From the NCBI RefSeq assembly GCF_024298765.1, contig NZ_CP101210.1: DNA of 64,000 bases. One strand, given 5' to 3'. Positions 1-56,535 of the stretch are shown piece after piece; position 1 is the stretch's first letter; every line of letters starts with the position of its first letter. A program made the position numbers and the translations under genes. The DNA is from Escherichia coli. GTDB lineage: Bacteria > Pseudomonadota > Gammaproteobacteria > Enterobacterales > Enterobacteriaceae. A model generated the notes under the pieces. That model saw only the letters and a list, made by a program, of their open reading frames with translations. It ran no database searches and was not told where the DNA came from.

Positions 1-2283
1 TTTCATGCTGTGGCGGGTTCCCTGTGCCACAATGTCAGCCCACAGGCCGGAGGACGTGTGTGTCAGATTCAGGTATCCGCCCAGGCTGCCGGCATCATCC
101 CGGACCGTGCCGGCGCGGGAACCGTCATCATCCTTAACATCAACGGAAGAATGGCCTGCGGCACCATACACCCCTGTCGTCAGAGACATACCGGCAACCT
201 CTGTTCTGAGCAGGTCACCCTCCAGACGGACGAAGCCATAGCTGCCGCTGCTTTCCGGCGTGGCTCCACGGGCAATACCGCCGTTGTTATCGTGACCGAG
301 ATGACCGCCCTGAATGCTGAGACGGACGCTGTTATTTTCACCGTTTACACCGGTCTGATGGCTGCGGGAGCCTGCCAGAATCCGGTCATAGTCCATTGCC
401 TGTGTCAACATGGAGGCATACAGGGGGACTTCAGCACGATAAGCATTTTCACTGCGCAGGTACCAGTCTTCATCGCTGTCACGGTTCAGGGTGTAGTTAA
501 AGGCGCCGGCCTGAAGCGGGCGACTCAGGGCAAACGCACCTTCTTCTGTGGTGGCACCATTCTGTGCATCCACAACCCGGATACCCTGTCCGGAGGTTGC
601 CACCCCGAGGTTACTGTTTCCGACATTTGTAAACGCAAGCCAGGTTTTGCCGGTTGCCTGACCACCATTAATCACCAGCTGGTCAGAGGCATTGCTGCCA
701 TCAAGGCGAACACGCATATTGATGGTGCCACCCTGACCGGTGAGGTTACTGGTGGTCAGTTTATGGAACGTTACCGGGGCGTCGCCTTTTGCAACAGCAC
801 GGCTCAGGACGGCATCCTGTGTCGTCTGATTATCAAAGCGAATCTCCCCTGCGTTAACAATATCGCCGGTACTGACCACATCACCATTCAGTACCATGCT
901 GGCGCCTTTACTGAGCTGTGTTCTGCCACTCAGACTTCCCCCGGCAGCCAGCGTCAGTGTTCCACGATGTCCGACAGTGGTGTTGCCAGCCTGTCCCCCG
1001 GCATTAACCGTAAAGCTGCCGCCATTTTCCAGCAGCAGGCCGCTGGCCTGACCGGATATGCCATCAATACTGAACTTACCGCTGGCATTGGTCCCCTCAA
1101 CAGTGGCACCACTGTCTGCAATCAGGGCACCACCGGATGTCATGGTGACACCTGTCGCCTTACCACCGGCAGACACTGCCAGGGTTCCGCCGTCATCCAC
1201 CCGTGTTTTCTGCGCTGAATGGCCTTCCAGTACATCCAGGCGACCGCCGGACTCCAGAACAACGCCGTCAGCCTTACCGTTTTCCACCGTGAAATTGCCC
1301 AGACGGTTGCTGCCAAGAACCGTTGCCGCAGTACTGGTGACCAGTGCTCCACCCTGTTTCAGGGTGACATTCGTGGCTGTACCACCGGCGTTCACCTGCA
1401 GTTTGCCTTTCTGGTTAACGGTGGTGAAATCCGCCAGACCACCTTCCTTGACAATCTGCCAGCCGTCACTGTTTACAACCGTGTCAGAGGCTGTGCCTCC
1501 GTTGTGCACATACTGGTAACCGCCATTCAGTGTGGTATCCAGCGCATGCCCGTGTACCGTCTGGTCGCCGCCGGCATAAACCACAGTGGTATTTGCTGTT
1601 CCTTCAATAGCCACAATCTGACGACCATTTTTATTGATGGTGGTACGTACGGCATTTCCGCGAACAAACTGCCCGGTATCACCATTTTCTGCATCCGGTC
1701 CCCCTTCCGCGCCGGTATTCACAACCGTGTCGGTTGCCACTGCGCCGGATTTGACGGCCTGCCAGCCCTTCTCATTAATGACAGTACCCGTTGCAATCCC
1801 GCCTTCATGTACCCACTGCTCACCGCCGTTCAGAGTGGTGTTCACTGCCTGCCCCTGAAGGCTCTGTCCGCCTCCGGCACTGATAACCGTGTCTGAAACG
1901 CTTCCTCCGGCATTCACTCTCTGAAGACCACCACCGGTGACAGTAGTGTTGTTGGCGGTACCGCCATTTTGTATCCATTGGCCGCCGGTATTGGCCTCGT
2001 TATCCGGCCCATACTCCAGCCCGGTACTGATGGTCATTCCGTTGGCCGTACCGAAGACAATCTGGTTGTCATGATTTGTCAGTGTTCCGTCGTTCACGGT
2101 TTCTCCCGCCTGTACAACCGTGTCAGCAGCCAGTGCCGGGACTGATGTGACAGCAGCAAGAGACAGCGCAACCGCCACACCGGCGCGTTTTCCCCGTGAG
2201 CGGGCCAGTTCGGAAGCCACCACCAGGGTGCCCGTAATGTGATTCCATACCAGCCTGTAGCTGGTGTTCAGATGTCGTTTCAT
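1..2283 (-). CDS. flu: Antigen 43 (Ag43/Flu) self-associating autotransporter adhesin; N-terminal ~760 codons, 3' end runs off the window
   Basis: Reverse translation from ATG at 2281-2283 reads MKRHLNTSYRLVWNHITGTLVVASELARSRGKRAGVAVALSLAAVTSVPALA followed by Gly/Thr/Asn-rich beta-helix passenger repeats; frame stays open to position 1. Not in the ORF track because no stop lies in the window. Confidence 0.9.
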   Translation of the reverse strand, partial: MKRHLNTSYRLVWNHITGTLVVASELARSRGKRAGVAVALSLAAVTSVPALAADTVVQAGETVNDGTLTNHDNQIVFGTANGMTISTGLEYGPDNEANTGGQWIQNGGTANNTTVTGGGLQRVNAGGSVSDTVISAGGGQSLQGQAVNTTLNGGEQWVHEGGIATGTVINEKGWQAVKSGAVATDTVVNTGAEGGPDAENGDTGQFVRGNAVRTTINKNGRQIVAIEGTANTTVVYAGGDQTVHGHALDTTLNGGYQYVHNGGTASDTVVNSDGWQIVKEGGLADFTTVNQKGKLQVNAGGTATNVTLKQGGALVTSTAATVLGSNRLGNFTVENGKADGVVLESGGRLDVLEGHSAQKTRVDDGGTLAVSAGGKATGVTMTSGGALIADSGATVEGTNASGKFSIDGISGQASGLLLENGGSFTVNAGGQAGNTTVGHRGTLTLAAGGSLSGRTQLSKGASMVLNGDVVSTGDIVNAGEIRFDNQTTQDAVLSRAVAKGDAPVTFHKLTTSNLTGQGGTINMRVRLDGSNASDQLVINGGQATGKTWLAFTNVGNSNLGVATSGQGIRVVDAQNGATTEEGAFALSRPLQAGAFNYTLNRDSDEDWYLRSENAYRAEVPLYASMLTQAMDYDRILAGSRSHQTGVNGENNSVRLSIQGGHLGHDNNGGIARGATPESSGSYGFVRLEGDLLRTEVAGMSLTTGVYGAAGHSSVDVKDDDGSRAGTVRDDAGSLGGYLNLTHTSSGLWADIVAQGTRHSMK

Positions 2284-2494
2284 CAGCTTTTCCTTACAGA
2301 GGGTGAATAAAAAAGCCGGTACCCACAAAAGTGGATACCGGCAGGTACAAAACAGCATGGTCAGATAAAGTGGTTTTTCCCGGACATAAATGTTTCCCCT
2401 CTCTCATCCGCCAGAGAAGTATCAGTCCGTTGTGTGCAATTCCGTTCTGCATGATGAAGAGATTCAGCTGCCTTTTCGCAGACCATTAACCACT

Positions 2495-2540
2495 ATAAAC
2501 GATCGATAGTAACGATCGATACCTGTTTTATCGATCGTTT
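2495..2540 (-). promoter_or_regulatory. agn43 phase-variation switch region: three closely spaced GATC (Dam) sites in the flu leader, the expected OxyR-binding region
   Basis: GATC at about 2501-2504, 2514-2517 and 2533-2536 within aaacgatcgatagtaacgatcgatacctgttttatcgatcg, roughly 220-250 bp upstream of the flu ATG; matches the known Dam/OxyR switch architecture of agn43. Confidence 0.7.
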
Positions 2541-2653
2541 TATTCTATTAACAGCAAGGCAGTCACGCAAGAGAAAGAGGTGGATATGAGGGGGGTGTAT
2601 CATGTTTTCAGTTGGTTAACGCAATGTAATCAGGCATTTCCCTGGCAGACTGT

Positions 2654-3526
2654 TCAGAAGAAAATCCAGTTCCATACAGCGCGGGCAACAGAGACCACCG
2701 AGTCACGGACGGCACGCAGAACCGTGCGTGCAACAGAGGCAATACAGACGCTCTCCGCCGTGTCAAATATCCGGTCCACCGCACCGGTAAACTGTTCACG
2801 GGCCTGAGACCGGACAGATTCCGTGCGCAGCTCGTCCTGCAGGCGGGTCATCAGGGGACTGGCGGCATGGTCGGGAAGCGCTGTCATGAGCGCACTGACC
2901 AGCGTATCCAGTTCCCAGCCGGTGCAGGCCGATACGGCCACAACCGGATGTACGGGCCGGAACAGCCGGAATACCGCATCTGTTTTCTCACGAATGTTCT
3001 GTGCCTGTGCGGGAGAAGGCTGAATACCGGCCATATCCCATTCATGGCAGGGCTCCGTTTTGTCGGCCTGCGTCACCACAAACAGCACCCGCTGATGTCC
3101 CCGGTGCAGGATGTGTCGCCAGAAATACTCATCCACAGACAGGGCGCGGTCATCGGCTTTAATCAGCCACAGCACCAGGTCCAGTTCGGGCAGAATGTCA
3201 CGGTACAGGGCTTCATACTCTGCATCCCTGTCCCGGCTCTCGCCCACCCCGGGCAGGTCAGTGATAACCATGCTGTGACCGTGGCCACTCAGACGGAAGC
3301 GCCGCACTTCCCGGGTGCCGGCGTGAACATCACTGACCGGGGTGACCTCCCCCTGAAACAGCGCATTACAGAGTGAGGATTTACCGGCCCCGCTTTTACC
3401 CATAATGCCAATCACGGGTTCGTGACTGGTGAGTTTGCGCAGATGTTCCAGGATGTGACGGGAAAGTGAGTAAGGCAGGGAAGAAAGTGGTTTTTCAATT
3501 GCCTCAATGGCATCAGACGGATTCAT
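2654..3526 (-). CDS. yeeP: YeeP/YkfA/YfjP-family GTPase (CP4-type prophage-island protein)
   Basis: ORF 2654..3565; P-loop GIMGKSGAGKSS and DLPGVGE switch motif; position immediately upstream of flu as in CP4-44. Start at the internal MNPSD Met (3526) is my preference; the ORF-track start is 3565. Confidence 0.75.
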   Translation of the reverse strand: MNPSDAIEAIEKPLSSLPYSLSRHILEHLRKLTSHEPVIGIMGKSGAGKSSLCNALFQGEVTPVSDVHAGTREVRRFRLSGHGHSMVITDLPGVGESRDRDAEYEALYRDILPELDLVLWLIKADDRALSVDEYFWRHILHRGHQRVLFVVTQADKTEPCHEWDMAGIQPSPAQAQNIREKTDAVFRLFRPVHPVVAVSACTGWELDTLVSALMTALPDHAASPLMTRLQDELRTESVRSQAREQFTGAVDRIFDTAESVCIASVARTVLRAVRDSVVSVARAVWNWIFF

Positions 3527-3789
3527 ACATGTATTCCCGGTGAAAAAAGACAAAACCCCGCGCACCGGAAAGGTGGCGGGGGATTCACGGAGATAATATC
3601 TGTCTGAAATTATTTAGAATGCACCTGGTGCACTGCAAAGGAAAGGCAATATTCCGTTCCTCCTCCTTGTCGTGAATACCCCAGGTATCTCACAATGTAC
3701 ACCGACTTACTCCGGGGCTGCCTGAACCACAAGATTGCTGTAGAATTGCCCCCAATGATTCAGGTCCAAACCAGGAAAATGGATTAAAA

Positions 3790-5346
3790 ATGACAAGTAT
3801 TCAACAACGAGCAGAACTGCACCGCCAGATATGGCAAATTGCCAATGATGTCAGAGGTTCTGTTGACGGATGGGATTTTAAGCAATACGTTCTGGGCGCG
3901 CTTTTCTACCGTTTTATCAGCGAAAATTTTTCCAGCTATATTGAAGCCGGTGATGACAGTATCTGTTATGCGAAACTGGATGACAGCGTAATTACTGATG
4001 ACATTAAAGACGATGCCATCAAAACTAAAGGCTACTTCATCTACCCCAGTCAGCTTTTCTGCAACGTAGCTGCGAAAGCAAATACCAATGACAGACTGAA
4101 TGCAGATTTAAACAGTATCTTCGTTGCTATCGAAAGTTCTGCTTACGGTTACCCTTCAGAAGCTGACATCAAAGGTTTGTTTGCTGATTTCGATACCACC
4201 AGTAACCGCCTGGGTAACACCGTTAAGGATAAAAATGCCCGCCTGGCTGCGGTTCTGAAAGGGGTTGAAGGGTTAAAACTTGGTGACTTCAACGAACATC
4301 AGATTGACCTGTTCGGCGATGCCTATGAGTTCCTGATTTCTAACTATGCGGCGAATGCTGGTAAGTCAGGCGGCGAGTTTTTTACACCGCAGCACGTCTC
4401 CAGGCTGATTGCACAACTGGCTATGCACGGGCAGACCAGCGTTAACAAAATCTACGACCCGGCAGCAGGTTCCGGTTCGCTGTTGTTGCAGGCTAAAAAA
4501 CAGTTTGATGACCATATCATCGAAGAAGGTTTTTTTGGTCAGGAAATCAACCATACGACCTATAACCTGGCGCGTATGAACATGTTTTTGCACAACATCA
4601 ACTACGACAAGTTTGATATCAAGTTGGGCAATACGCTGACTGAGCCGCACTTCAGAGATGAAAAACCGTTTGATGCCATCGTTTCTAACCCGCCGTATTC
4701 GGTGAAATGGATTGGCAGCGATGACCCGACGCTGATTAACGATGAACGTTTTGCCCCGGCTGGCGTCCTGGCCCCCAAATCCAAAGCTGACTTTGCGTTT
4801 GTACTACATGCGCTGAACTATCTTTCGGCCAAAGGTCGTGCTGCGATTGTCTGCTTCCCGGGTATTTTTTACCGTGGCGGCGCAGAGCAGAAAATCCGTC
4901 AATATCTGGTCGACAATAACTATGTCGAAACCGTGATTTCACTGGCACCGAACCTGTTCTTTGGCACCACCATTGCCGTAAACATTCTGGTGCTGTCTAA
5001 ACATAAAACGGATACCAACGTTCAGTTTATTGACGCCAGCGAACTGTTCAAAAAAGAGACTAACAACAATATCCTGACCGATGCCCATATCGAACAGATT
5101 ATGCAGGTATTTGCCAGCAAGGAAGATGTTGCTCATCTGGCAAAATCTGTCGCGTTCGAAGCCGTTGTCGCGAATGACTATAACCTGTCGGTGAGCAGCT
5201 ATGTGGAAGCGAAAGATAACCGCGAAATTATCAATATTGCTGAACTGAATGCAGAGCTGAAAACCACGGTCAGCAAAATCGACCAGTTGCGTAAAGATAT
5301 TGATGCAATTGTGGCTGAAATTGAAGGCTGCGAGGTGCAGAAATGA
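3790..5346 (+). CDS. hsdM: Type I restriction-modification N6-adenine DNA methyltransferase subunit HsdM (type IC-like)
   Basis: 518 aa; SAM-binding motif DPAAGSGS and catalytic motif SNPPYS; stop overlaps the hsdS start (ATGA). Confidence 0.9.
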
Positions 5347-6569
5347 GCGAGTTGACTTATCTGGAAAAATTGCTGGATGGGGTTAAGGTTGAGTGGCAAA
5401 CACTAGGGAAAGTGCTTAAACGAACTAAAGGCACAAAAATAACCGCTGGGCAGATGAAAGCTCTTCACAAAGATAATGCGCCGCTTAAAATTTTTGCAGG
5501 AGGGAAAACAGTAGCCTTTGTTGACTTTAAAGATATACCAGAGAAAGATATTAATAGAGAGCCATCGATTATTGTTAAATCCAGAGGTATTATCGAATTC
5601 GAGTATTACGATAAACCATTCTCTCACAAAAATGAGATGTGGTCATATCACTCAAATAATGATGCGATAAGCATAAAGTATATTTATTACTTCCTAAAAA
5701 TAAATGAAGGATATTTCCAGAAAATTGGGGGTAAAATGCAAATGCCACAAATTGCAACTCCTGATACAGATAAGTTTGAAGTTCCAATCCCCTGCCCGGA
5801 TAATCCGGAAAAATCCCTTGCCATCCAGTCTGAAATCGTTCGGATTCTGGATAAGTTTACTGCACTTACCGCTGAGCTTACCGCTGAGCTTAATATGCGT
5901 AAAAAACAATACAACTACTATCGCGACCAGTTACTGAGTTTTGAGGATGGTGAGGTTGAGTGGAAGGCGTTAGGGACTATATGCCAAATTGGCGATGGCA
6001 ATCACTCATCAAAGTATCCTAAGGCGAATGAAATGATTGAGCAGGGGATACCCTTCATTCGTGGTACCAATATGGTGAATGGTACAATATGCAATCAAGA
6101 TATGAAGTACATATCTAAAGAAAAACACAATGAACTAAAAAAGGGGCATTTAAAAGCATTTGATGTTTTGATAGCTAATAGGGGAGAGGTTGGGAAGGTA
6201 GCATATGTTCCAGAGGGATATTCTGGATCTAATTTAAACTCCCAGTTAGCATGGCTTAGAGCCAACCCGGAAATTATCATTAATAGATATTTATTTTTCA
6301 TTCTTTGCTCATCAACCATACAGAATAAACTTTCTGGTGAAGGAGGGGCATTACAACAACTTACTATCAAGAACATAAAAAACATTCAGATACCTGTTCC
6401 ATCAATAACCGTTCAGAGCAATATCGTATCTTTTTTGGACAAGTTCGACTCGTTAACCAACTCAATCAGTGAAGGCTTGCCACGTGAAATCGAGTTGCGC
6501 CAGAAACAATACGAGTACTATCGTGATTTACTGTTCAGTTTCCCAAAACCTGATACTGTCAGTAATTAA
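5343..6569 (+). CDS. hsdS: Type I restriction-modification specificity subunit HsdS, type IC family, two target-recognition domains
   Basis: 408 aa; central conserved region [27 protein letters not shown] and C-terminal repeat [15 protein letters not shown]; the TAEL tandem repeat is the type IC (EcoR124I-family) hallmark. Confidence 0.85.
5868..5891 (+). repeat. 2 x 12-bp in-frame direct repeat (accgctgagctt) encoding TAEL-TAEL in the HsdS central spacer region
   Basis: Read directly in the sequence; in type IC HsdS the TAEL copy number sets the spacer length of the recognition site (EcoR124I vs EcoR124II). Confidence 0.85.
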
Positions 6570-6690
6570 TTGACCATTGCTACCGACCGGGCCACCTTAA
6601 CACCCGGTCTGTATATAGACTATTTTTTACGCGCCGGAAGTCACTCTTAACGCCCTTCCGGCCCTTGCCAGGCGGCACAAAGGATGCGCT

Positions 6691-9600
6691 ATGACTCATC
6701 AAACACACACCATTGCTGAATCCAATAACTTTATCGTCCTTGATAAGTACATCAAAGCTGAGCAAACAGGCGACAGCTATCAGAGCGAATCGGACCTGGA
6801 ACGGGAACTGATTCAGGACCTGCGAAATCAGGGCTATGAATTTATATCCGTAAAATCTCAGTCAGCGATGCTGGCCAACGTTCGGGAACAGCTTCAGAAC
6901 CTCAATGGTGTGGTGTTTAATGACAGCGAGTGGCGGCGTTTCACGGAGCAGTTTCTGGATAATCCGAGCGATGGCATCCTGGATAAAACCCGTAAAATTC
7001 ATATCGACTACATCTGCGACTTTATTTTTGACGACGGGCGTCTTGAGAACATCTATTTGATAGATAAAAAGAATCTCATGCGCAATAAAGTGCAGATTAT
7101 CCAGCAGTTTGAACAGGCAGGCTCTCATGCTAACCGTTATGACGTCACGATCCTGGTTAATGGTTTACCGCTGGTGCAAATCGAACTAAAAAAACGCGGG
7201 GTGGCGATTCGTGAGGCTTTCAACCAGATACATCGTTACAGTAAAGAGAGTTTTAACAGCGAAAATTCCCTGTTTAAGTATCTGCAACTGTTTGTCATTT
7301 CTAACGGCACCGATACCCGTTACTTTGCCAACACCACAAAGCGCGATAAAAACAGTTTTGACTTCACCATGAACTGGGCGAAATCAGACAACACGCTGAT
7401 TAAAGACCTCAAAGACTTTACCGCTACCTTTTTCCAGAAACATACTCTGCTTAATGTTCTGGTGAACTACAGCGTTTTTGACAGCAGTCAGACGCTACTA
7501 GTGATGCGACCGTACCAGATTGCTGCCACCGAGCGCATTCTGTGGAAAATTAAGAGCTCCTTTACAGCGAAGAACTGGTCAAAACCGGAAAGCGGTGGGT
7601 ATATCTGGCACACTACCGGTTCTGGTAAAACCCTCACCAGCTTTAAAGCCGCGCGTCTGGCAACAGAGCTGGACTTTATTGATAAAGTCTTCTTCGTGGT
7701 CGACAGGAAAGACCTCGATTACCAGACCATGAAGGAATATCAGCGTTTTTCGCCAGACAGCGTCAACGGCTCGGAAAATACCGCAGGCCTTAAACGAAAT
7801 CTGGATAAGGACGATAACAAAATTATCGTCACTACTATTCAGAAACTCAATAACCTGATGAAAGCAGAAAGCGACCTGCCTGTATATAATCAGCAAGTGG
7901 TGTTTATATTTGATGAATGCCACCGCAGCCAGTTTGGAGAAGCGCAGAAAAACCTGAAGAAGAAATTCAAACGCTATTATCAGTTTGGTTTTACCGGCAC
8001 CCCTATTTTCCCGGAAAACGCCTTAGGCTCAGAAACAACCGCCAGCGTATTTGGTCGTGAATTGCATTCGTATGTAATTACCGATGCGATTCGTGACGAA
8101 AAAGTGCTCAAATTCAAGGTGGACTACAACGATGTGCGACCACAGTTTAAGTCTTTAGAGACAGAAACTGACGAGAAAAAACTAAGTGCGGCTGAAAATC
8201 AGCAGGCGTTTCTTCATCCCATGCGTATTCAGGAAATCACGCAATATATTCTGAATAATTTCCGCCAGAAAACCCACCGTACTTTCCCTGGCTCCAAAGG
8301 TTTTAATGCCATGCTGGCAGTAAGCAGCGTGGATGCCGCGAAAGCCTATTACGCGACGTTTAAACGGTTACAAGAGGAAGCCGCTAATAAATCTACTACC
8401 TGTAAACCACTGCGTGTTGCGACAATCTTCTCCTTTGCCGCTAATGAAGAACAAAATGCGATTGGTGAAATATCCGATGAAACTTTTGATACCAGCGCAA
8501 TGGACAGCAGTGCTAAAGAGTTTCTTGACGCTGCAATTCGTGAGTATAACAGCTATTTTAAAACTAACTTCAGCACCGACAGTAAGGGTTTTCAGAACTA
8601 CTATCGTGATTTAGCCCAACGGGTTAAAAATCAGGATATCGATCTGTTAATTGTCGTGGGGATGTTTTTAACCGGTTTCGATGCTCCAACATTGAACACG
8701 CTATTCGTCGATAAAAACTTGCGTTTTCACGGCCTGATGCAGGCATTTTCCCGCACCAACCGTATTTATGATGCAACTAAAACCTTCGGTAATATCGTCA
8801 CTTTCCGCGATCTGGAACGCTCAACCATCGATGCCATAACGCTGTTTGGTGACAAAAACACCAAAAATGTAGTGTTAGAAAAGAGTTATGCAGAGTATAT
8901 GGAAGGCTTTACTGATGCTGCTACTGGTGAAGCTAAGCGCGGCTTTATGGCAGTAGTTGCAGAACTGGAACAACGGTTCCCTGACCCTGCCAGTATTGAA
9001 AGTGAAAAAGAGAAGAAAGACTTCGTTAAACTGTTTGGTGAATACCTGCGTGCCGAGAACATCCTGCAAAACTATGATGAATTTGCCACGCTGAAAGCCC
9101 TGCAACAAATCGATCTTAGCGATCCTGTTGCAGTAGAAAAATTCAAAGCAGAACATTATGTGGATGATGAAAAGCTCGCTGAATTGCAAACAATTCGTCT
9201 CCCTGCTGATCGCAAGATTCAGGATTATCGTTCTGCCTATAACGATATTCGCGACTGGCAGCGCCGTGAGAAAGAAGCTGAGAAAAAAGAGAAATCAACC
9301 ACTGACTGGGATGACGTAGTTTTTGAGGTCGATTTGCTGAAATCTCAGGAAATAAACCTGGATTATATCCTTGGTCTGATTTTCGAGCACAACAGACAAA
9401 ACAAAGGTAAGAGCGAAATGATCGAAGAGGTCAAACGCTTAATTCGTTCAAGCCTGGGGAACCGTGCTAAAGAGGGCCTGGTGGTCGATTTTATTCAGCA
9501 AACGAACCTGGATGATTTACCGGACAAAGCCAGCATCATTGACGCATTCTTTACGTTTGCTCAACGCGAACAGCAACGTGAAGCAGAAGCCTTGATCAAA

Positions 9601-9807
9601 GAAGAAAATCTCAATGAAGAGGCGGCGAAACGCTATATTCGCACATCTTTAAAACGCGAATACGCCACCGAAAATGGCACGGAATTAAACGAGACACTGC
9701 CCAGACTCAGTCCTTTAAATCCGCAATATAAAACGAAAAAACAGACTGTTTTTCAAAAAATTAGCGCATTTATTGAAAAATTTAAGGGGGTGGGTGGAAA
9801 GATTTAG
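6691..9807 (+). CDS. hsdR: Type I restriction endonuclease subunit HsdR (SF2 helicase/nuclease)
   Basis: 1038 aa; helicase motifs TGSGKT and DECHRSQ; RBS aaagga before the ATG; gene order M-S-R as in type IC systems. The TAG stop sits directly against the IS5 end. Confidence 0.9.
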
Positions 9808-11003
<1,196 letters not shown>

Positions 11004-19209: not shown

Positions 19210-19688
19210 GTTGGAGTCATTACCAATGGTGGTAACCGTATAGTCCCAAATAAAGATAAAAATGCTTCATTCTTACTCACCATTCCATTTGCTAAGTCTG
19301 TTATTGATGAAATATTGAGTAAAGAAAATCTGTCATGGTGCTCGAAAAATACTTTGCCAATATTGCATGCTTTTAGTATTAGAGCTTTAACCTCCTAATT
19401 GCTGAAGTAATGATACAAGCTACAGTATTGGTGACGAATCTATAGACAAGGAGATAAAAACCAAATATCAGAATTATTTTTGATAGTGCTGGTAAAGAAG
19501 CGGTGTTTGATATCAGCATGTTTATCGGAAAAAAGCTTACCTGGAGCTTTGAAAAATTGCAAAGCAGGGCCTGACAATGAAGGCCCTAATACTGTACTGA
19601 ATGTTAACTCAGTACCAAATTACAAGGAAAAGTATTTTTTCTGGTAAGATTCTGTATACATAATAAATCACCTTATAGTTACAATAGG

Positions 19689-20170
19689 TCAAAAACCGCT
19701 GTAGCCAAAGTTACGCTGGCCTGATGCTTTAGTGTCGAGCTTCGTCAAATAATCCAGACGTACCAATAAGCGCTGGTACTGCTCTGGGAAATCAGGCTCG
19801 TTAATATCCAGGATGTAACGTCCATTAGCAGGGAAATGAACTAATCCCTGGTGATCTTCCAGTTCCAACCCTAAGGCACTGTACCAGGCTCCGGTAATTA
19901 ACCCTCTCAGTGTGTCAGAGCGCTCATAGTTTCCCAGGTGGTAATAGGCGTCTTTGTTAAAAAAAGGCAGACGTGATAATGACATTTAAAGGACTGCGTA
20001 TATTCTTTCGCCCAGATAATACAAACCGCCGTTGCGTAGGTGCGTTTGCCTTGTTGTTTTTTACTGTGTTGATCTGCATTAATTTTCGCATTCAGCGAGT
20101 TACGGAAACGAGATATCTCTCCGGGGATCAGGTTAGGGAAACAGGTAATGATATCCCCGTTGTCAATCAC
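19689..20170 (-). pseudogene. Hypothetical gene, apparently frameshifted (two overlapping minus-strand ORFs 20170->19907 and 19985->19689)
   Basis: Two same-strand ORFs overlap in different frames between IS1 copy 1 and IS2; no family recognised. Could be unrelated spurious ORFs. Confidence 0.25.
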
Positions 20171-20260
20171 AGGAGGGTAATGGAGATCCCCCCGTATTGC
20201 TGTTATTCTGGAAGTGTTTTTAATATTCGTATTGATAGTTCTCAGAGATTGGATTTGCCC

Positions 20261-21166
20261 CTATATTTCCAGACACCTGTTATCACTTAACCCATTACTG
20301 GCCCGCTGCCGTAGATATTCCCGTGGCGAGCGATAACCCAGTGCACTATGCGGGTGCCATTCGTTATAATGCTCGAACGCCTCTGCAAGGTTCTTTGCTG
20401 CCGTTAACCCGTCTGGTTTAGGCATGATACTGATGTAGTCACGCTTTATCGTTTTCACGAAGCTCTCTGCTATGCCGTTACTCTCCGGACTCTGCACCGC
20501 CGTGTTCTTCGGTTCAAGCCCTAATATCCGGGCAAACTGCCGTGTTTCATTAGCCCGGTAGCATGAACCATTATCCGTCAGCCACTCTACTGGAGACGCC
20601 GGAAGCTCGTTGCCGAAGCGGCGTTCCACCGCTCCTGGCATGACGTCCTGTACTGTTTCACTGTCGAAGCCGCCCGTAGTGACTGCCCAGTGCAGTGCCT
20701 CACGGTCACAGCAGTCCAGCGCGAACGTGACTCGCAGTTTTTCTCCGTTATCACAGCGGAACTCGAACCCGTCAGAGCACCATCGTTGATTGCTTTCTTT
20801 CACGGCCACTTTGCCAGTATGTGCCCGTTTCGATGGCGGTACAGCGGTTTTTCGCTCAAGCAACAGCGCATTCTGGCGCATGATCCGGTAAACACGTTTG
20901 GCATTGATCGCAGGCATACCATCAAGTTCGGCCTGTCTGCGAAGCAGCGCCCATACCCGACGATAACCATACGTGGGCAGCTCTCCGATAACATGGTGTA
21001 TACGGAGAAGCACATCCGTATCATCTGAGTGACGGCTGCGGCGACCATCTTTCCAGTCATCGGTTCGTCTGAGAATTACGTGCAACTGCGCACGCGACAC
21101 CCGGAGACAACGGCTGACTAAGCTTACTCCCCATCCCCGGGCAATAAGGGCGCGTGCGCTATCCAC
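20261..21166 (-). CDS. insD: IS2 transposase OrfB (InsD)
   Basis: 301 aa with DDE-transposase C-terminus ...[18 protein letters not shown]. Confidence 0.9.
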
Positions 21167-21489
21167 TTTTTTGCACGCCCGTATTCAACGGCTTCTTTAA
21201 GGAGTTCATTTTCCATCGTTTTTTTGCCGAGCAGGCGCTGGAGTTCTTTAATCTGCTTTATGGCAGCAGCAAGTTCAGAGGCAGGAACGATCTGTTCTCC
21301 TGCGGCCACAGCAGTAAGACTTCCCTCCTGGTATTGCTTGCGCCAGAGAAATAACTGGCTGGCTGCCACACCGTGTTGCCGGGCAACAAGGGAGACCGTC
21401 ATTCCCGGTTCAAAGCTCTGCTGAACAATAGCGATCTTTTCCTGTGTAGTACGCCGTCTGCGTTTCTCCGGTCCTAAGACATCAATCAT
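21124..21489 (-). CDS. insC: IS2 OrfA (InsC), HTH protein
   Basis: Start at [26 protein letters not shown] within ORF 21124..21534. Confidence 0.85.
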
Positions 21490-21533
21490 CTGCTCTCCAA
21501 TGACTAGTCTAAAAACTAGTATTAAGACTATCA

Positions 21534-23450
<1,917 letters not shown>

Positions 23451-23463
23451 TACCGCAGGAGGC

Positions 23464-24918
23464 ATGATGGAGAGCATTAATAATCAAGTGCAGTCGGTAC
23501 GCCAGTTGCTGGCCATTCCCCAACTGGCCATCCCAAGCTATCAGCGACCTTACCGCTGGGGCTCCAAGAATATCTCGGATCTCTTTACCGATTTGGCAAC
23601 CCATCAGGACAAGAGCGCCTACCGGCTGGGCTCGGTGGTGTTTCATCAGCACACCGATAGTGAGCAGGGCGAAATGCTTGATATCGTCGATGGTCAGCAA
23701 CGCACCCTGACCCTGATGTTGACCGTCAAGGCGCTGATCGAGGTGCTGGATAACGAAAATCGCAGTGGCAAAGAGAAGAGTATCCGGTTTCAACGTCAGG
23801 ATCTGCGTGAGCAATTGCAGGTCTTGCGTGGACCTATCGATGCGTTTATGCAGCGCCAGCGCTTCCCCAGCCGGGATTCGGAGTTCAACCTCAGACGTAA
23901 CTATCTGGAGTTGCGTCGGCTGGTGGCCCGCCCTGAGTTTGACGAGCAGCAAATTGACTTTCTGCTCAACCGCTGTCAGGTGGTCTGCTTTGTACTGCAG
24001 GATATCTCGGAGGCGTTCCAGTTCTTCGATTCGCAAAATGCCCGGGGGCGCGATCTGGCTCCTCACGATCTGCTCAAGGCATTTCACCTGCGCGAGTTTG
24101 CCGGTCATGAGGCCAATCTCAAGGCCGAGGCGGTCGCCCATTGGGAGCGCCTGCCAAGCGACGAGCTGGCCAATCTGTTCGCCCTCTATCTCTATCGGGT
24201 ACGCCAGTGGGCCGAGGGCAAGTCGGCCCGCTACTTTGGCAAGGGGGAGGTGGATCTCTTCAAGGGGGTCAACCTAGATCGGGTAGGGCATTATCCTTAC
24301 GTGGAGTCGCTGCGCATCGCCCACCACTTTGTCGATGAGTACAACAGCCAGTACCAGCGCAAGATTGACGGCCAGTACATGACGTTTCCCTTTCATCTCG
24401 ACCAGATGATCATCAATGGTCGGCGCTTTTTCGAGATGGCCGAGTACTACCAGACGCGGGTGGCCGCCATCGTGGCCGAGGAGTCTGATTCCGGCAAGGC
24501 GCAATCTGCCACCCTGCTCGGCGAAACGCTGACACCGATGGCCAGCAAGGTGCTATCGACCCTGGGCAGCTACGAGCGTCGCCACCGCACCGGGGATCGT
24601 TATGTGCGGGCCATGTTCGACTGCGCCCTGATCTTCTATATCGACAAGTTCGGCAGCCAAGGGCTGTCACTGGCCATCGAGAAGTGCTTTATCTGGGCCT
24701 ATCGCTGCCGCATCCGCCAGCAGGTAGTGCAGTTGGCAACCATGGATAACTATGTGCTGGAGCACAATCTGATCCGTGCCATTCGTGATGCTCGTCTGCC
24801 GGGAGATCTGCACGGCTTCCCTTTGCCTAGCATGAGCAGTCGAGAGAACAAGAACAATCGCAATGGTGCCGAAGATGAGCTGGTCGGGCTGTTTCGGGAG
24901 ATGAAATATTATGAATGA
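23464..24918 (+). CDS. DUF262 (ParB/Srx-like NTPase fold) protein; candidate defence component, GmrS-like
   Basis: 484 aa; DUF262 signature [10 protein letters not shown] ... [13 protein letters not shown] and [18 protein letters not shown]; RBS aggagg before the ATG; 3' end overlaps the next gene by 8 bp. Confidence 0.75.
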
Positions 24919-26953
24919 TGCAGGCGTTCGCCCCTTTTCCATTCGTGCACTGCTTGAAGATCGCGCCCGCTATCTGGTGCCCATGTACCAGCGCAACTAT
25001 GCCTGGGGTGAGGGAGAGATCACCCAGCTGCTGCAGGATGTGCTGGATTATCAGCAAAAATTGGTCAGTGGTAAGGGGCCGCAAACCTACTATATCGGCA
25101 CCCTGGTGGTGTTTGCCCGGGACGATGGCAGTTTCGAGGTAATCGATGGCCAGCAGCGCTTTACTACCCTCTCTCTGCTGGCCAATTGGCTCAAACATCA
25201 CGCGATAGATTCGGTGGATATGAGCTGGTATCAGACCATCAACCTCGCTTTTGAGAGTCGCCCGATATCGAGCCATACCTTCGAGCGCTTATGGCAGGGG
25301 GTTGCCCCCGACGATTTGCGGGGGAGTACCTTCAATGAAGGTTTGGTGAACGGTTTTGAGCTGATTGGCAAGGCAATGGCGGAGCTTGGTTTGGTAGGGG
25401 CTAAACTGACGGCCTTTTGCGACTACCTCTTCAAGCATGTGCAGATCTCTCGTATCGAAGTACCCAAGGATACCGATCTCAATCACTTCTTCGAGGCGAT
25501 GAACAATCGCGGCGAGCAGTTGGAAAAGCATGAAGTGATCAAGGCGCGGCTGATGGAGACGCTGAACCAGATACCCGAGGAAGAGCATCGTCGCCAAAGT
25601 ATTCATATCCTGACCCGGGTATGGGATGCCTGCGCCAATATGGAGCGCTATATCCAGTACGGCTTTACCCCGCAAGAGCGCCACCGTCTGTTTGGTGAGA
25701 GCGACTGGGGTCAGTTTGTGCCCCGTGATTTTGCCCATCTGCTTGATCTGCTAGGATCCCCAAACACGGCCGACGCTGCCGATAAAAGCCGTGCAGCTGC
25801 CGGTAGCCAAGGGCGCACCTTGTTGGCCATTTTGCAGGATGACAAGCTTGATGGTGAGCAGACGGTGGAGGAGGAGAGCGCAGGCTCCGAGCGCTTTAAC
25901 AGCGTCATCAACTTCTCCAACTTCTTGCTCCATGTGCTGCGACTCGTGAGCCGCGACCCGGGTAATACGGAGGGGGTGCCGCTTGATGATAAACAACTGG
26001 TCGATCAGTTTGAGCTGCGAGTGATAAGGCAACCGGATCCAGTAGCGGCAGTTCAGCGTTTTATCTATGGCCTGTTAAAGAGCAAGTATCTGTTTGATCA
26101 GTTCATCATCAAGCGCGAGTTTGCCGATGGCAAGGATAGTTGGAGTCTGAAGCGGCTGCACTGGTATTCGGAAAAGAGCGTCAGTTACATCAATACCTTT
26201 GACAAGGATGAAAATGAGAATGGTTTCTCTGGTGTTAACCGGCGGGTCCTGATGTTGCTGTCGGCGTTTCATGTGTCGACCCCGACCCTGGTTTACAAAC
26301 ATTGGCTGAATGGTGCACTGAGATATCTGTTCGACAATTGTCACCCTGATCAACCGGTGGATGCCGGGGCTTATCTGTCCTATCTGGAGAGTCAGGCTCG
26401 CCGCTTTGTCTTCCAGCGCTTTTTAGCGCCTGGTGAAGGGGCTTCCTATTACCAGATGCTCTACCTTGATAACGCCCTGTTGCCCGCCATCAATGTGGAT
26501 GAGAGTTGGCACAAGGTGATTACATCCAAACTTCGCTTCGGTCATATCGAGAACAACTTTGTCTTCAACTTCCTCGACTATCTGCTGTGGGTACGAGATC
26601 GGAATAGCGACAAAGTTGCTGGCTCCTTTGAGTTCACTTTCCGCAGCTCGGTGGAGCACTTCTCACCCCAGCATCCGATGGATGGCTATAAACCGGTTGA
26701 GCAGAGTGCACTCCATTCGTTTGGCAACCTTTGCCTTATCAGCCACAGCAAGAACTCGCGCTTGAGTAACTTCCAGCCGCAACAGAAGCAGGAGCACTTT
26801 GAAGCAAGCCTTGCCAATAACCAGACTGATAGTCTTAAATTGCTTGCTATGATTCGGCTGATGAAAGATAAAGGTCGTTGGCTGGAAGATGAGATAGCTG
26901 TGCATCAACAAGATATGTTGCAGGTCTTACTATCCAATCAAATTCAGCAATAA
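24911..26953 (+). CDS. DUF262-DUF1524 two-domain protein (GmrSD-like type IV restriction-enzyme architecture: N-terminal NTPase, C-terminal His-Me finger nuclease)
   Basis: 680 aa; N-terminal YQRNYAW ... [11 protein letters not shown] and [17 protein letters not shown] (DUF262); C-terminal [14 protein letters not shown] ... [17 protein letters not shown] (DUF1524-like). Confidence 0.75.
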
Positions 26954-27023
26954 CGGATTGAATCTGTTGGTGATGCTGCCAACTTACTGATTTAGTGTAT
27001 GATGGTGTTTTTGAGGTGCTCCA

Positions 27024-27299
27024 GTGGCTTCTGTTTCTATCAGCTGTCCCTCCTGTTCAGCTACTGACGGGGTGGTGCGTAACGGCAAAAGCACTGCCGG
27101 ACATCAGCGCTATCTCTGCTCTCATTGCCGTAAAACATGGCAACTACAGTTCACTTACACCGCCTCTCAGCCCGGTACGCACCAGAAAATCATTGATATG
27201 GCCATGAATGGCGTTGGATGCCGGGCAACCGCCCGCATTATGGGCGTTGGCCTCAACACGATTTTCCGCCATTTAAAAAACTCAGGCCGCAGTCGGTAA
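27024..27299 (+). CDS. insA: IS1 InsA
   Basis: 91-aa ORF, one substitution (L to F) relative to copy 1. Confidence 0.9.
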
Positions 27300-27721
27300 C
27301 CTCGCGCATACAGCCGGGCAGTGACGTCATCGTCTGCGCTGAAATGGACGAACAGTGGGGCTACGTAGGTGCTAAATCACGTCAGCGCTGGCTGTTTTAC
27401 GCGTATGACAGGATACGGAGGACGGTTGTGGCGCACGTCTTCGGTGAACGCACTCTGGCCACACTGGAGCGTCTTCTGAGCCTGCTGTCGGCCTTTGAGG
27501 TCGTGGTATGGATGACGGATGGCTGGCCGCTTTATGAATCACGCCTGAAGGGAGAACTGCACGTTATCAGCAAGCGATTTACGCAGCGCATTGAGCAGCA
27601 TAACCTGAATCTGAGGCAGCATCTGGCAAGGCTGGGCAGGAAGTCACTGTCGTTCTCAAAATCGGTGGAGCTGCATGACAAAGTCATCGGGCATTATCTG
27701 AACATAAAACACTATCAGTAA
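27218..27721 (+). CDS. insB: IS1 InsB
   Basis: 167-aa ORF overlapping insA. Confidence 0.85.
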
Positions 27722-27736
27722 GTTGGAGTCATTACC

Positions 27737-27964
27737 CAGCTCATCGCGCAGTGAGCCAAAATCCGCATCTGAAGCACGGTCAAAAAGGTAATCCAGTTTG
27801 CGATTTACGTCGCTCAGCTGGTTGGTAACTATTTTCAACCCGGACTCCAGATCACCTGGGCCAGCTTCAAGGCAGCGCCGCAGATACTCTGACCGATTAC
27901 CACCTGAAACCAGGTCTATATAGGCCAAAAGTTCATCTGATACTTTTGCGGTTATTGTTGGCAT
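27737..27964 (-). pseudogene. Ribbon-helix-helix (CopG/Arc/TrwA-like) DNA-binding protein gene, 3' end interrupted by IS1
   Basis: MPTITAKVSDELLAYIDLVSGGNRSEYLRRCLEAGPGDLESGLK...: beta-strand then two helices as in RHH proteins; after ~76 codons the frame runs into the IS1 end (ORF 27656..27964). Confidence 0.5.
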
Positions 27965-28302
27965 CCAGTCCTCACTTTGTGCATTTTTTAAACGAAAAAA
28001 GGGTGTCTAATACGGTGAAATCATAGTATTACCAAAGTAATAAATAAAAATTGTTTTAAATCAGTAGGTTAGATTAGATTTGTAATGCCTGGGTAATACC
28101 GCAGCATGGCTAAATTTGGTTTTTTTTCTTTTAAATCAGTTGGATAGCGTGATTTATCACGCTGCGTTAGGTGTATAGCAGGTTAAGGGATAAAAAATCA
28201 TCTTTTTTTGGTAGGGCGATCTCCGTAGGTTAAGGGTCATTTGGCTAAAAAGCGTCCTATTCTTTGATGGTCATGCTTGCATGACCATCTGAGCAACCAA
28301 AA

Positions 28303-28448
28303 ACTACAGATAAACTACAGATAAACTACAAAAAACGTTTTGCCTTAGTATTGGAAGACTACAAATAGACTACAATAAAACTACAAAGAAACTACAAAAA
28401 ACATGACAGACTACAAATAGACTACAAGAATACTACAGATAAACTACA
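28303..28448 (+). repeat. Iteron array: 11 copies of ACTACA(A/G) in 11-bp register, three clusters (3+4+4); candidate centromere-like or operator site
   Basis: ACTACA at ~28303, 28314, 28325, 28358, 28369, 28380, 28391, 28410, 28421, 28432, 28443; preceded by a perfect palindrome gatggtcatgcttgcatgaccatc (28266-28289); just upstream of the StbA-like gene. Confidence 0.8.
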
Positions 28449-28509
28449 AAACTCGATTGACCCCTTCTTACGAGTGTTGTAGAGTCATTTTCATACAACG
28501 GAGGGGGTT

Positions 28510-28896
28510 ATGAATAAACCAGCAGATCTGAAACCCCGCAACTTATCGGCTGCTGTCAGATTGCGCCTAAATGAAATCGAGAACTGGCTGGACAGAGGGC
28601 TAACGCGGCATGAAATTGCTGAAATCCTCGACAGCGAATACAGCTTTTCGGTAACAGCCAAAGGGCTTGAGATGGCACTGTATAGAACGCGGCAAAACCG
28701 AAAAAATGTATTGCACAATACACATGATAAGAGTAGCGCGAAGGGTGCAGCGGAAAGTGTATTGCACAATACACAACCGTCTGAGCCTGAAGCGCAGGAA
28801 AGTGAAAAAGCAGAGAGTCCCGGCATTATTGATAAAGAATTCTTCAATAAAATCGGTGAGAATTTCGACCCTAAGAAGTTCAACAAAAAATTCTGA
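28510..28896 (+). CDS. Small putative DNA-binding protein, candidate iteron-binding partition adaptor (StbA/ParR-like); function inferred from context
   Basis: 128 aa; RBS ggaggg 6 nt before the ATG; directly downstream of the iteron array and upstream of a ParA-like gene fragment. Confidence 0.4.
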   Translation: MNKPADLKPRNLSAAVRLRLNEIENWLDRGLTRHEIAEILDSEYSFSVTAKGLEMALYRTRQNRKNVLHNTHDKSSAKGAAESVLHNTQPSEPEAQESEKAESPGIIDKEFFNKIGENFDPKKFNKKF

Positions 28897-28904
28897 GGTG
28901 ATTT

Positions 28905-29091
28905 ATGAAAGTAGCGGTAATTAATTACAGTGGCAGTGTTCGTAAAACCTTAATTTCATCTTACCTGTTAGCTCCGCGCCTGACTGGTGCAAAGTTCTAT
29001 GCGGTAGAGACTATCAACCAGTCTGCTTCCGATCTGGGTATTGAAAATGTGACCAGTTTTAAAGGTGACGACTTCTCACGTTTGATTGAGG
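28905..29091 (+). pseudogene. N-terminal fragment of a ParA/StbB-like ATPase gene, truncated by a solo IS1 end
   Basis: MKVAVINYSGSVRKTLISSYLLAPRL... resembles a deviant Walker-A start; ORF ends at 29096 where the IS1 terminal sequence begins. Confidence 0.4.
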
Positions 29092-29123
29092 GGTAATGAC
29101 TCCAACTTACTGGTAGTGTTTTA
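29092..29123. mobile_element. Solo IS1 terminal-repeat remnant (~32 bp)
   Basis: ggtaatgactccaacttactggtagtgtttta matches the IS1 end (ggtaatgactccaacttattgatagtgtttta) with 2 mismatches, then diverges. Confidence 0.7.
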
Positions 29124-29173
29124 GCGAAGTTAAGTGACACAATAGTTTAATCTGGAGGAATTAATGAAGAGTT

Positions 29174-32113
29174 ATGAGTAATTTTAATTTTCTAACAGAC
29201 ATCAGCCCTGAACTCGCTCAATTTGGTAAAAGTGCCGAGCTGTATTACCATGATGATAAGCAGGTAGCACTAGTGAAACTTAGGTGTTTTACTGAAGTAG
29301 TCGTTGGGGAAATTTATTCACGTTTATCGCTAACCCCACCTGTTCGTGATGATTTATATAATCGACTGCGCAGCTACGAATTCAAGGACGTTGTCAGTGA
29401 TAAGGGAATCTGGGCCAAATTAGATGTATTGCGACATAAAGGTAACAAAGCCGCCCACTCTAGCAATGGTTCAGACGAGATTTCCCTCAATGAAACACTC
29501 TGGTTAATCAAAGAAGCTTATTTAGTCGCCCGTTGGTATGCTCAAGCTATTCTCAATAAGCCTATCACTCCGCCAGAGTTTGTTGATCCGGTAAAACCTA
29601 TCGATCATACATCTCGCTTAGAAGCAGAGTTAGAACGGCAACGTCAAGAACTCAATAAACGAGAGGCTGAATTAAAGACCCAGCTTGCTGATAATAGTGA
29701 TAAATATCAACAACAGACGAGTGAGCTAATAGCTCAACTAGACGAAAAAAACGACACACTTTCCAATGTAAAAAAAGAGCAAGCACTATTACAGATTGAA
29801 CTTGAACAAAAACAAAAAGATCTAGTCGCTTCACAACAAGCCTTCTTTGATTACAGGACGCGTGAAGAGTTTAAACAAGCTAGTATTTCATCAGCTTCAA
29901 GCTTTGATCTTGATATGGAAGTGACGCGCCGAAATATTGATATATTTGATTGCTTTGAAGGAGTAAGTTTAACTAAAGGTCAAAACCAAATAGTTAAGCA
30001 AATAAATGAGTTTCTAACCGATACCAAACAAAACGTATTTTTACTTAATGGTTATGCAGGTACAGGTAAAACATTTATAACTAAAGGAATTACTCAGTAC
30101 CTAGAAAGAATTGGTCGTGAATTCGCTATTATGGCCCCGACGGGGAAAGCCGCGAAAGTGATATCAGACAAAACAATGCAACCTGCCAGCACTATTCACC
30201 GCGTGATATACAATTACGACAACGTGAAAGAGTACAAAGTTGACGGTGTGGAAGGGTCTGAAACTTATCGTTGCTATGCTGACCTTAAAGTCAATGTAGA
30301 TACTGCCGAAGCTGTTTATATAATTGATGAAGCGTCAATGGTTTCTGACAGATATTCCGATGGTGAGTTTTTTCGTTTTGGGAGCGGATATTTATTAAAA
30401 GACTTGCTCAAGTACATAAATATTGACCACAACGATCATAATAAGAAAGTTATTTTTATTGGTGATAATGCACAGTTGCCACCTGTTGGAATGAATACGT
30501 CACCAGCGCTAGATGCCAGTTACCTTAAAGAAAATTATCAAGTCGCTGTGGCTTCAGGGCACTTGACTGAAGTTGTTCGTCAAAAAGGTGATAGTGGTGT
30601 TTTGAACAATGCTGCCATGTTGCGTGACGGTTTAGAGCAAAATCTTTTCAATAAACTGAAATTTGAAGTTAATGATCATGATGTATTTAATTTGTCCTCG
30701 GAAAATCTACTTAGCACTTATCTAGACTCATGTGATAGAAAAGTTAGCCGTACAGGAGAAAGTATTATTATTGCTTCTTCAAACCGACAAGTAGCTGAGT
30801 ATAACCGTTTGGTTAGAGAGTACTTCTTTACTGGTCAACAGCAAATGGTCGCGGGAGATAAAGTCATTTCGGTAGCAAATCACTATCGAGCAGACGCTTG
30901 TATTACCAATGGTGAATTTGGAATGATCAAGGAAGTACTATCTCCTCATTCTGAGTTGATTAGTGTTGACATTAGCGTCAAAGGTGACACTGGTGACATG
31001 GTTAAGCGAAAAGTAAATCTGAGTTTTAGGGATGTGATTCTAGGCTTTCGCAACGACTACGGTGAACCATTCTTCTTTGAAGCCAAAATTGTAGAAAACC
31101 TACTTTACAATGATCAGCCGACCTTATCGTCAGATGAGCACAAAGCACTCTATGTTCACTTTTTAAATCGACACCCAGAACTGAGACGTAAAGGTAATGA
31201 ACAAAAGCTTAGAATTGCATTATTGCAAGATCCTTATTTCAATGCTTTTAAACTTAAGTTTGGTTATTCCATTACTGGACACAAAGCACAGGGTAGCGAA
31301 TGGAAAACTGTTTTCTTACAGTGTCAAACACACCAAAAAGCCTTAACTAAAGATTACTTCCGCTGGTTATACACCGCTATAACGAGAACTTCTGGCATCC
31401 TGTATGTAATGAATCCACCTCAGTTGCGCTTAGGAGATGGAATGAAAATAGCAGGAGCGTACCAACCCAAAGCAGTAAACCTAGACAATTCTGCTCCTGA
31501 AGGCGTTGAGGTTGTGCGACCAAGTACCGAAGCAACGAACTCAGTAGCCACAGCGAAGTTTGATTTTCAGACTGACATCCCGCAACTTAAAAAGCTATAC
31601 CAACTTGTTGATGCATGTATTGAAGGTACAGGGATTACTGTAGTGGATGTCCTTCATTATAACTATCAAGATCGTTACATCTTGCAGCGCGGGAATGAGC
31701 AGGCTTCGATAAGTTTCAATTACAAGGGTAACTGGAAAGTGTCTGGCGTAAAGAGCATTACTCAAGATGGGTTCGATGTTGAACTCATGGCTTTGCTTGG
31801 TCAATTAGAAGGTACTTTGCTCGATGTACCTGAGCCTTCAAAGGATACTCAGTTCCATTTTTCAGAGCCATTCTTAGAAGAGTTTTATCTAAATGTAATG
31901 GATCAAATCAACAGTGTTGGAGCTGATATAAGCAAAATTGAATCTCGTTCATTTTGTGAAAGATATGCATTTGTTAAAGGCAATGAGTTGGCGGTAATTG
32001 AGTTTTGGTACAACAAGTCTAGCCAGTTTACTAAAGTTCAACCTATGCCTCAGCTTAGTAATTCCACAAGGCTCATTGACGAAATAATATGTCAAATAGG
32101 TGTGCTTCTATGA
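29174..32113 (+). CDS. Large SF1B (RecD/Pif1/Dda-like) helicase with an uncharacterised N-terminal helical domain and a coiled-coil linker; candidate defence effector/sensor
   Basis: 979 aa. Helicase motifs: Walker A NGYAGTGKTF, IMAPTGKAAKV, Walker B IIDEASMV, motif III VIFIGDNAQLPPV, motif V/VI SITGHKAQGSEWKTVFL. N-terminal ~130 aa contains LDVLRHKGNKAAHS (possible DUF4145/HEPN-like R-x7-H); residues ~140-230 are a heptad-rich E/Q/K/L segment. No relaxase motifs. Confidence 0.75.
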   Translation: MSNFNFLTDISPELAQFGKSAELYYHDDKQVALVKLRCFTEVVVGEIYSRLSLTPPVRDDLYNRLRSYEFKDVVSDKGIWAKLDVLRHKGNKAAHSSNGSDEISLNETLWLIKEAYLVARWYAQAILNKPITPPEFVDPVKPIDHTSRLEAELERQRQELNKREAELKTQLADNSDKYQQQTSELIAQLDEKNDTLSNVKKEQALLQIELEQKQKDLVASQQAFFDYRTREEFKQASISSASSFDLDMEVTRRNIDIFDCFEGVSLTKGQNQIVKQINEFLTDTKQNVFLLNGYAGTGKTFITKGITQYLERIGREFAIMAPTGKAAKVISDKTMQPASTIHRVIYNYDNVKEYKVDGVEGSETYRCYADLKVNVDTAEAVYIIDEASMVSDRYSDGEFFRFGSGYLLKDLLKYINIDHNDHNKKVIFIGDNAQLPPVGMNTSPALDASYLKENYQVAVASGHLTEVVRQKGDSGVLNNAAMLRDGLEQNLFNKLKFEVNDHDVFNLSSENLLSTYLDSCDRKVSRTGESIIIASSNRQVAEYNRLVREYFFTGQQQMVAGDKVISVANHYRADACITNGEFGMIKEVLSPHSELISVDISVKGDTGDMVKRKVNLSFRDVILGFRNDYGEPFFFEAKIVENLLYNDQPTLSSDEHKALYVHFLNRHPELRRKGNEQKLRIALLQDPYFNAFKLKFGYSITGHKAQGSEWKTVFLQCQTHQKALTKDYFRWLYTAITRTSGILYVMNPPQLRLGDGMKIAGAYQPKAVNLDNSAPEGVEVVRPSTEATNSVATAKFDFQTDIPQLKKLYQLVDACIEGTGITVVDVLHYNYQDRYILQRGNEQASISFNYKGNWKVSGVKSITQDGFDVELMALLGQLEGTLLDVPEPSKDTQFHFSEPFLEEFYLNVMDQINSVGADISKIESRSFCERYAFVKGNELAVIEFWYNKSSQFTKVQPMPQLSNSTRLIDEIICQIGVLL

Positions 32114-56254: not shown

Positions 56255-56257
56255 GCA

Positions 56258-56535
56258 TGATAAGACGCGTCTGCGTCGCATCTGGCACCGGTACACAACC
56301 GCCGGATGCGGCGTGAACGCCTTATCCGGCCTACGGGTGAGCACGGTTTTGTCGGCATGATAAGACGCGTGGCGTCGCATCTGGCATCGGCGCACAACCG
56401 CCGGATGCGGCGTGAACGCCTTATCCGGCCTACTGGTGAGTGCGGTTTTGTCGGCATGATAAGACGCGTAGTGTCGCATCAGACACCGGCGCACAACCGC
56501 CAGATGCGGCGTGAACGCCTTATCCGGCCTACAAA
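56258..56535. repeat. REP/BIME cluster: three tandem ~98-bp units of repetitive extragenic palindromes
   Basis: Repeated gcatgataagacgcg...gtcgcatc...gccggatgcggcgtgaacgccttatccggcctac units at ~56258, 56356, 56454. Confidence 0.85.

Follow-up and report, generated by a model that had tools for sequence, protein, structure and literature searches.

The window analyzed here is a 64,000-nucleotide stretch of an Escherichia coli chromosome, and it carries an hsdM-hsdS-hsdR operon on the plus strand. The modification subunit gene hsdM (3790..5346) encodes a type IC protein of 518 amino acids with the Pfam domains N6_Mtase (1.2e-120) and HsdM_N, and it overlaps the start of hsdS by 4 bp. The specificity subunit gene hsdS (5343..6569) is intact and encodes 408 amino acids with two Pfam Methylase_S domains; the protein aligns end to end with the 404-amino-acid HsdS of EcoR124 (7bst_A; E = 4e-84). 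The restriction/translocase subunit gene hsdR (6691..9807), likewise intact, encodes 1038 amino acids with the domains HSDR_N, SWI2_SNF2, T1R_D3-like, and EcoR124_C. HsdM is identical to EcoR124 HsdM (PDB 7bst_D) at 513 of 518 positions (99.0%), and residues 1 to 1038 of HsdR align with residues 1 to 1038 of EcoR124 HsdR (PDB 2w00_A) at 2265 bits. HsdM and HsdR similarity within one type I family is over about 70% (PMC10030836), and both subunits are similar to the family reference at the level of fellow members. The order of the genes and the 121-bp gap between hsdS and hsdR follow the type IC layout. This gap holds a promoter-like consensus match at 6597-6626; when the operon was scanned for promoters and terminators, consensus matches were no more numerous than in shuffled sequence. 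The operon DNA is 95 to 97% identical to many plasmid type IC operons, an identity at which DNA hybridization between them is all but certain to be expected.

The alignment of HsdS with 7bst_A shows near identity at residues 1 to 20, 146 to 206, and about 349 to 408 and is poor between these segments. The N-terminal target-recognition domain, TRD1 (about residues 20 to 146; 5400..5780, plus strand, boundaries approximate), is poorly conserved with respect to EcoR124I. It is followed by the central conserved region (residues 147 to 208; 5781..5966, plus strand), which forms the helix that sets the spacing of the TRDs and in which residues 146 to 200 are identical to those of EcoR124 HsdS. The C-terminal target-recognition domain, TRD2 (about residues 209 to 360; 5967..6422, plus strand, boundaries approximate), is again diverged from EcoR124I, and the distal conserved region (residues 361 to 408; 6423..6566, plus strand), the coiled-coil partner helix, is nearly identical to that of EcoR124 HsdS. 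This is the type IC arrangement, in which two variable TRDs alternate with conserved N-terminal, central, and C-terminal regions, and the central region also contains a tetra-amino-acid tandem of the kind found in this family (TAEL, LEAT, SEAL, or TSEL). Because HsdM, HsdR, and the conserved regions of HsdS all match and both TRDs are dissimilar, the window system is, as judged by sequence, a member of the EcoR124 (type IC) family with a TRD pair that differs from that of EcoR124I. The preliminary description had called the gene a type IC hsdS, and this assignment holds: the central region has the very sequence seen in the solved EcoR124 HsdS, and HsdM shares 99.0% identity with its EcoR124 counterpart.

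Both TRDs of the window protein are also found with other partners. TRD1 is joined to other TRD2s in the HsdS proteins P0011, P0058, P0090, and P0102, while TRD2 is common to the allele family of ET210 and NT1F25, with at least 99% identity from hsdS nucleotide 432-442 onward. P0058 combines the window TRD1 with the TRD2 of EcoR124I. P0011, a natural HsdS of 415 amino acids on 40 Escherichia contigs, carries the window TRD1 in both TRD positions; it is a symmetric specificity subunit, and its predicted site is bipartite and palindromic, as for the engineered EcoR124I-NT.

The central region contains a single array at 5865-5892, identified with Tandem Repeats Finder as 2.3 copies of a period of 12 with 100% matches and the consensus CTTACCGCTGAG. 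This perfect tandem repeat (CTTACCGCTGAG x2.33, plus strand) consists of units at 5865-5876 and 5877-5888 and a partial copy at 5889-5892. It lies in frame with the hsdS open reading frame (5343-6569); the codons at 5868-5891 encode TAEL twice, as residues 176 to 183 of HsdS. From 5859 to 5894, the letters read ACT GCA, then CTT ACC GCT GAG twice, then CTT AAT. The perfect 12-bp direct repeat encoding (TAEL)x2 that had been described for 5860-5900 is therefore present as described. Perfect tandems with at least 16 matched positions and a period of 7 to 30 number two in the window and occur in 0 of 60 first-order Markov sequences of 64 kb, so the tract is beyond what chance would produce. In addition, the 12-mer, allowing at most one mismatch, occurs 3 times, against 0.24 expected from shuffles. 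A scan of the operon found no other tandem tract in hsdM, hsdS, or hsdR.

The hsdS gene is 100% identical to those of strains 13P460A and 2020CK-00188, and over 31 kb the window runs collinear with 2020CK-00188, with 99.96% identity. The operon is situated in a thrW-associated island, near tRNA-Thr and proA, that also holds an Ag43-like adhesin, a GTPase gene, and IS elements. Directly downstream of hsdR, on the minus strand, lies an ISKpn26-family IS5-like transposase (9955-10935), and beyond it comes a gluconate permease gene that is truncated. The window and 13P460A differ at 7 positions in the first 12.5 kb, every one of them inside this IS. Farther along, a segment of roughly 10 kb (19225-29508) is present in 2020CK-00188 and absent from 13P460A. 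It comprises two DUF262 genes, a frameshifted N-6 DNA methylase, IS1 and IS3 copies, and a frameshifted inovirus Gp2-like gene, and it looks like a decaying patch of defense or mobile elements adjoining the hsd island. Within it, at 28301-28450, there are iteron-like 11-bp units with ACTACA, 2.7 perfect copies followed by about 8.7 degenerate ones, just upstream of stbA (about 28510-28896; annotated in 2020CK-00188 as a plasmid stabilization protein). This array may serve as the binding site of StbA or as a centromere-like site. A further tandem repeat at 56254-56532 has a 99-bp unit in 2.8 copies with 92% matches, and the unit holds a REP-like palindrome, GCCGGATGCGGCGTGAACGCCTTATCCGGCCTAC.

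The mechanism by which repeat number acts as a spacer has been known since 1989, and the window repeat is this textbook EcoR124I/II device; what is new is the allele. In EcoR124I, two repeats go with the site GAA N6 RTCG, and in EcoR124II, three repeats go with GAA N7 RTCG (Loenen et al., PMC3874165). Engineered hybrids with altered repeat number had gaps exactly as predicted (PMC3874165). The literature thus agrees with the rule put forward for this locus, that two TAEL units give N6 and three give N7 (PMC3874165), and for the window allele the rule is carried over by homology from EcoR124I/II, EcoDXXI hybrids, and NgoAV. Each 12-bp unit would extend the helix separating the two recognition domains by four residues, or roughly one turn, and the number of units would thereby set the distance between the two half-sites. 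The window allele would be the two-copy state, of N6 type by analogy with EcoR124I. With units that are identical in DNA, occasional misalignment, by replication slippage or unequal crossing-over, could add or remove one unit, and the new specificity would keep both half-sites with a gap one base longer or shorter. A third unit in the window allele would accordingly be expected to change N6 to N7. We consider it highly probable that the tract is a TAEL spacer repeat of the EcoR124 type within an intact chromosomal type IC system, in which rare misalignment shifts specificity.

Natural variants of the tract are found in both chromosomal and plasmid systems. The island is also present in strain MB06102, where HsdM, the GTPase, and the Ag43 protein have the same accessions as in the window and hsdS is 12 bp longer. 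Compared with the window hsdS, it has exactly one additional CTTACCGCTGAG unit, making three copies, and 0 substitutions. The chromosomal window allele thus has a natural three-copy sister, which is an addition of the present analysis. Positions 1-9807 of the window differ from MB06102 by 51 mismatches, distributed as 0 in the Ag43 gene, 0 in the GTPase gene, 0 in hsdS, 2 in hsdM, and 49 in hsdR. The 49 lie in the 3' two-thirds of hsdR (window 7500-9777), and only 2 lie in the 7.5 kb to the left; this clustering points to a recombination mosaic within hsdR. A second allele family joins the window TRD2 to another TRD1 and occurs as a protein of 418 amino acids with two units (ET210, NT1F25) and one of 422 amino acids with three units (ES6, ET151). 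Beyond the 12-bp unit, ET210 and ES6 have 0 mismatches in 6.8 kb. Synthetic one-copy and four-copy queries retrieved a further variant on plasmid p98210, an intact one-copy hsdS that is otherwise identical to a very common two-copy plasmid allele; the one-copy protein of this type is found on 28 contigs and its two-copy counterpart on at least 1000. In all three cases (MB06102, ET210/ES6, and p98210), sister alleles with identical TRDs differ in unit number alone. The proposal that the locus can switch is thus borne out by natural variants, the three-copy allele of MB06102 and the ET210/ES6 pair.

Longer tracts were found in ETEC1701, which has four copies in an hsdS split by IS3, and in strain 33-6, which has eight copies, a truncated hsdM, and an hsdS cut by IS1. 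The closest intact relative found of ETEC1701 is ETEC4073, with three units and 19 differing positions over the 2.9 kb compared. The eight units were read in 33-6; strain 58-3 has an equal match span of 249 bp, 48 bp more than the four-copy query. The eight-unit tract lies at 2501-2749 of L011 (NZ_CP050031.1, strain 33-6), and the four-unit tract lies at 2501-2704 of L010 (NZ_CP122941.1). Every intact hsdS read as sequence has one to three units, and four and eight copies occur only in IS-disrupted genes. This small survey of unit number against gene integrity, also added here, suggests, from a sample of two lineages, that selection caps the length of the tract only while the system works.

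DNA similar to the central region is present in 1269 of 5426 complete E. coli genomes, with up to 6 matching places per genome. The frequency of each state was estimated from systematic spread samples of records matching a 180-bp central region. Among the complete E. coli genomes sampled (57 informative rows), 32 had the two-copy length and 25 were 12 bp longer; the corresponding numbers for the plasmids sampled were 33 and 24. Pooled, 65 of 114 central regions had the two-copy length and 49 (about 43%) had 12 bp more, and no length of −12 or +24 was found in either the genome or the plasmid sample. Four of the sampled rows were read as sequence, and both of the longer ones encode TAEL x3 and both of the others TAEL x2. 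Units are homogeneous within alleles, with synonymous differences between alleles (GCT versus GCC; CTT ACC GCT GAG versus CTG ACA GCA GAA). For example, Azotobacter pAcX50f has CTT ACC GCC GAG twice, and pYDC107_184 has CTG ACA GCA GAA twice followed by CTG ACA GCA GAG. Such identity of units within an allele is the pattern expected from repeated loss and regeneration of units. The best 120 full-length HsdS protein matches all have at most two TAEL units, a figure that was rejected as a copy-number distribution because a 4-residue gap lowers the score and so biases the ranking. A 74-amino-acid central-region query with five TAEL units retrieved only fragments of at most 130 amino acids, none with three or more perfect TAEL units. 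No population-scale survey of TAEL number turned up in the literature searched, the EcoSal Plus 2025 review holds no passage on the TAEL repeat, and searches by strain and by accession found no paper on the variant-carrying strains or the HsdS protein accession.

The rate at which the tract changes bears on how it should be regarded. The unit changed while flanks of 6.8 to 7.5 kb gained 0 to 2 substitutions; the behavior of the tract is that of an evolutionary hotspot and not that of a classical contingency locus, and the evidence as a whole points to switching as a rare, evolutionary-scale change rather than frequent phase variation. With two units, a shifted register gives only 16 bp of identity, and the rate is probably low. 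This length is below the usual minimum for efficient RecA-dependent exchange, which makes replication slippage no less likely than unequal crossing-over, the route suggested in the literature.

The tract could instead be a high-frequency reversible phase-variation switch, with clonal cultures that mix N6 and N7 methylomes in the manner of a phasevarion. A repeat-driven change of spacing in the hsdS of type I systems has been put forward as a hypothesis by Atack et al. (PMC7383803), the sister strains ET210 and ES6 come from one frog-farm setting and differ by one unit, and the identity of units within alleles implies repeated turnover. The tract itself argues against such a switch, as two 12-bp units are far below the length of classical contingency tracts and in-frame changes bring no ON/OFF state. 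The tract was also considered as a member of the SSR phasevarions, defined by a long tract and high-frequency frameshifts, and was not assigned to them, as it has 2.3 units of 12 bp and all of its changes are in frame. The exact two-copy HsdS protein of the window is found on 89 contigs of a public collection, whereas an exact look-up among 15 billion proteins retrieved no one-, three-, or four-copy form of it. The same look-up retrieved no one- or three-copy sister of five other abundant two-copy alleles (29 to 145 contigs each). These absences are weak evidence, because the RefSeq three-copy proteins of MB06102 and of ES6/ET151 are missing from the same collection. Overall, frequent phase variation at this tract appears quite unlikely.

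Less probable still, and in our judgment very unlikely, is that the differences in copy number reflect recombinational import of a three-copy central region out of a different type IC system, such as a plasmid-borne one. In favor of this reading, a genome can have up to 6 matching places, and TRD shuffling has its crossovers in the central conserved region, as illustrated by the other partners of both window TRDs. However, MB06102 retains the allele-specific CTT AAT ATG directly 3' of the repeat, at a place where AAC stands in most of the other alleles, and its hsdS is without any substitution; ES6 and ET210 likewise have zero mismatches in 6.8 kb. A tract brought in from elsewhere would need to span nothing but the repeat. 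An origin of the variant copy numbers in assembly or sequencing artifacts, with the repeat itself a fixed structural feature, is hardly credible: some assemblies can miscount short tandem repeats, but independent assemblies agree (three copies in both ES6 and ET151, the same 249-bp span in 33-6 and 58-3), the one-copy protein recurs on 28 contigs, the extra 12 bp is present in about 43% of the central regions sampled, and EcoR124I and EcoR124II were established by experiment.

With rare misalignment of a spacer repeat as the preferred reading, gaining or losing 12 bp would equip the host with a different restriction specificity and a different methylation pattern with no gene added, and strains that are otherwise the same would find the barrier between them to phage and plasmid DNA reset. 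Near-identical chromosomal islands, and isolates from a single setting, are observed to differ in unit number, which is of use in reading the methylomes of E. coli and its barriers to plasmid transfer. Once a switch has occurred, the chromosome lacks modification for the new specificity, and survival is presumably ensured by restriction alleviation and assembly control of type I enzymes. A broader and rather doubtful extension is that TAEL number in E. coli type IC systems serves as a selectable ruler, held at one to three units in intact genes and drifting upward once the system is inactivated, and that the island toggles between N6 and N7 in clonal lineages often enough to cause differences in methylome and restriction barrier even among very close relatives, for instance isolates of a single farm.

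Among known systems, the SSR-driven phasevarions share with the window system the principle that a change of repeat number in hsdS alters the output of the methyltransferase (PMC7383803). In contrast to their long frame-shifting tracts, the two in-frame 12-bp units of the window would change spacing and not expression. In the NgoAV system of Neisseria gonorrhoeae (type IC), LEAT repeats range from 0 to 3 among strains, and the PacBio motifs go from N6 to N7 accordingly (PMC6789123). There too, the number of a tetra-amino-acid repeat varies among strains and the gap of the motif follows, but the peptide and the species are different, and NgoAV has an additional poly-G frameshift that truncates HsdS. 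EcoDXXI and EcoPrrI, likened here by their published description, belong to the type IC family and have TAEL repeats in the central region; they carry three repeats (PMC3874165), and thus N7, where the window allele has two. EcoR124I/II of plasmid R124 has the same gene order, an HsdM at 99%, an HsdR matched over its full length, and, in EcoR124I, the same HsdS central region with TAEL x2. The kind of variation is also the same, a 12-bp unit in two versus three copies. The window system differs in lying in a chromosomal island instead of on a plasmid and in both of its TRDs, and because both TRDs differ from those of EcoR124I, its half-sites are not GAA and RTCG.
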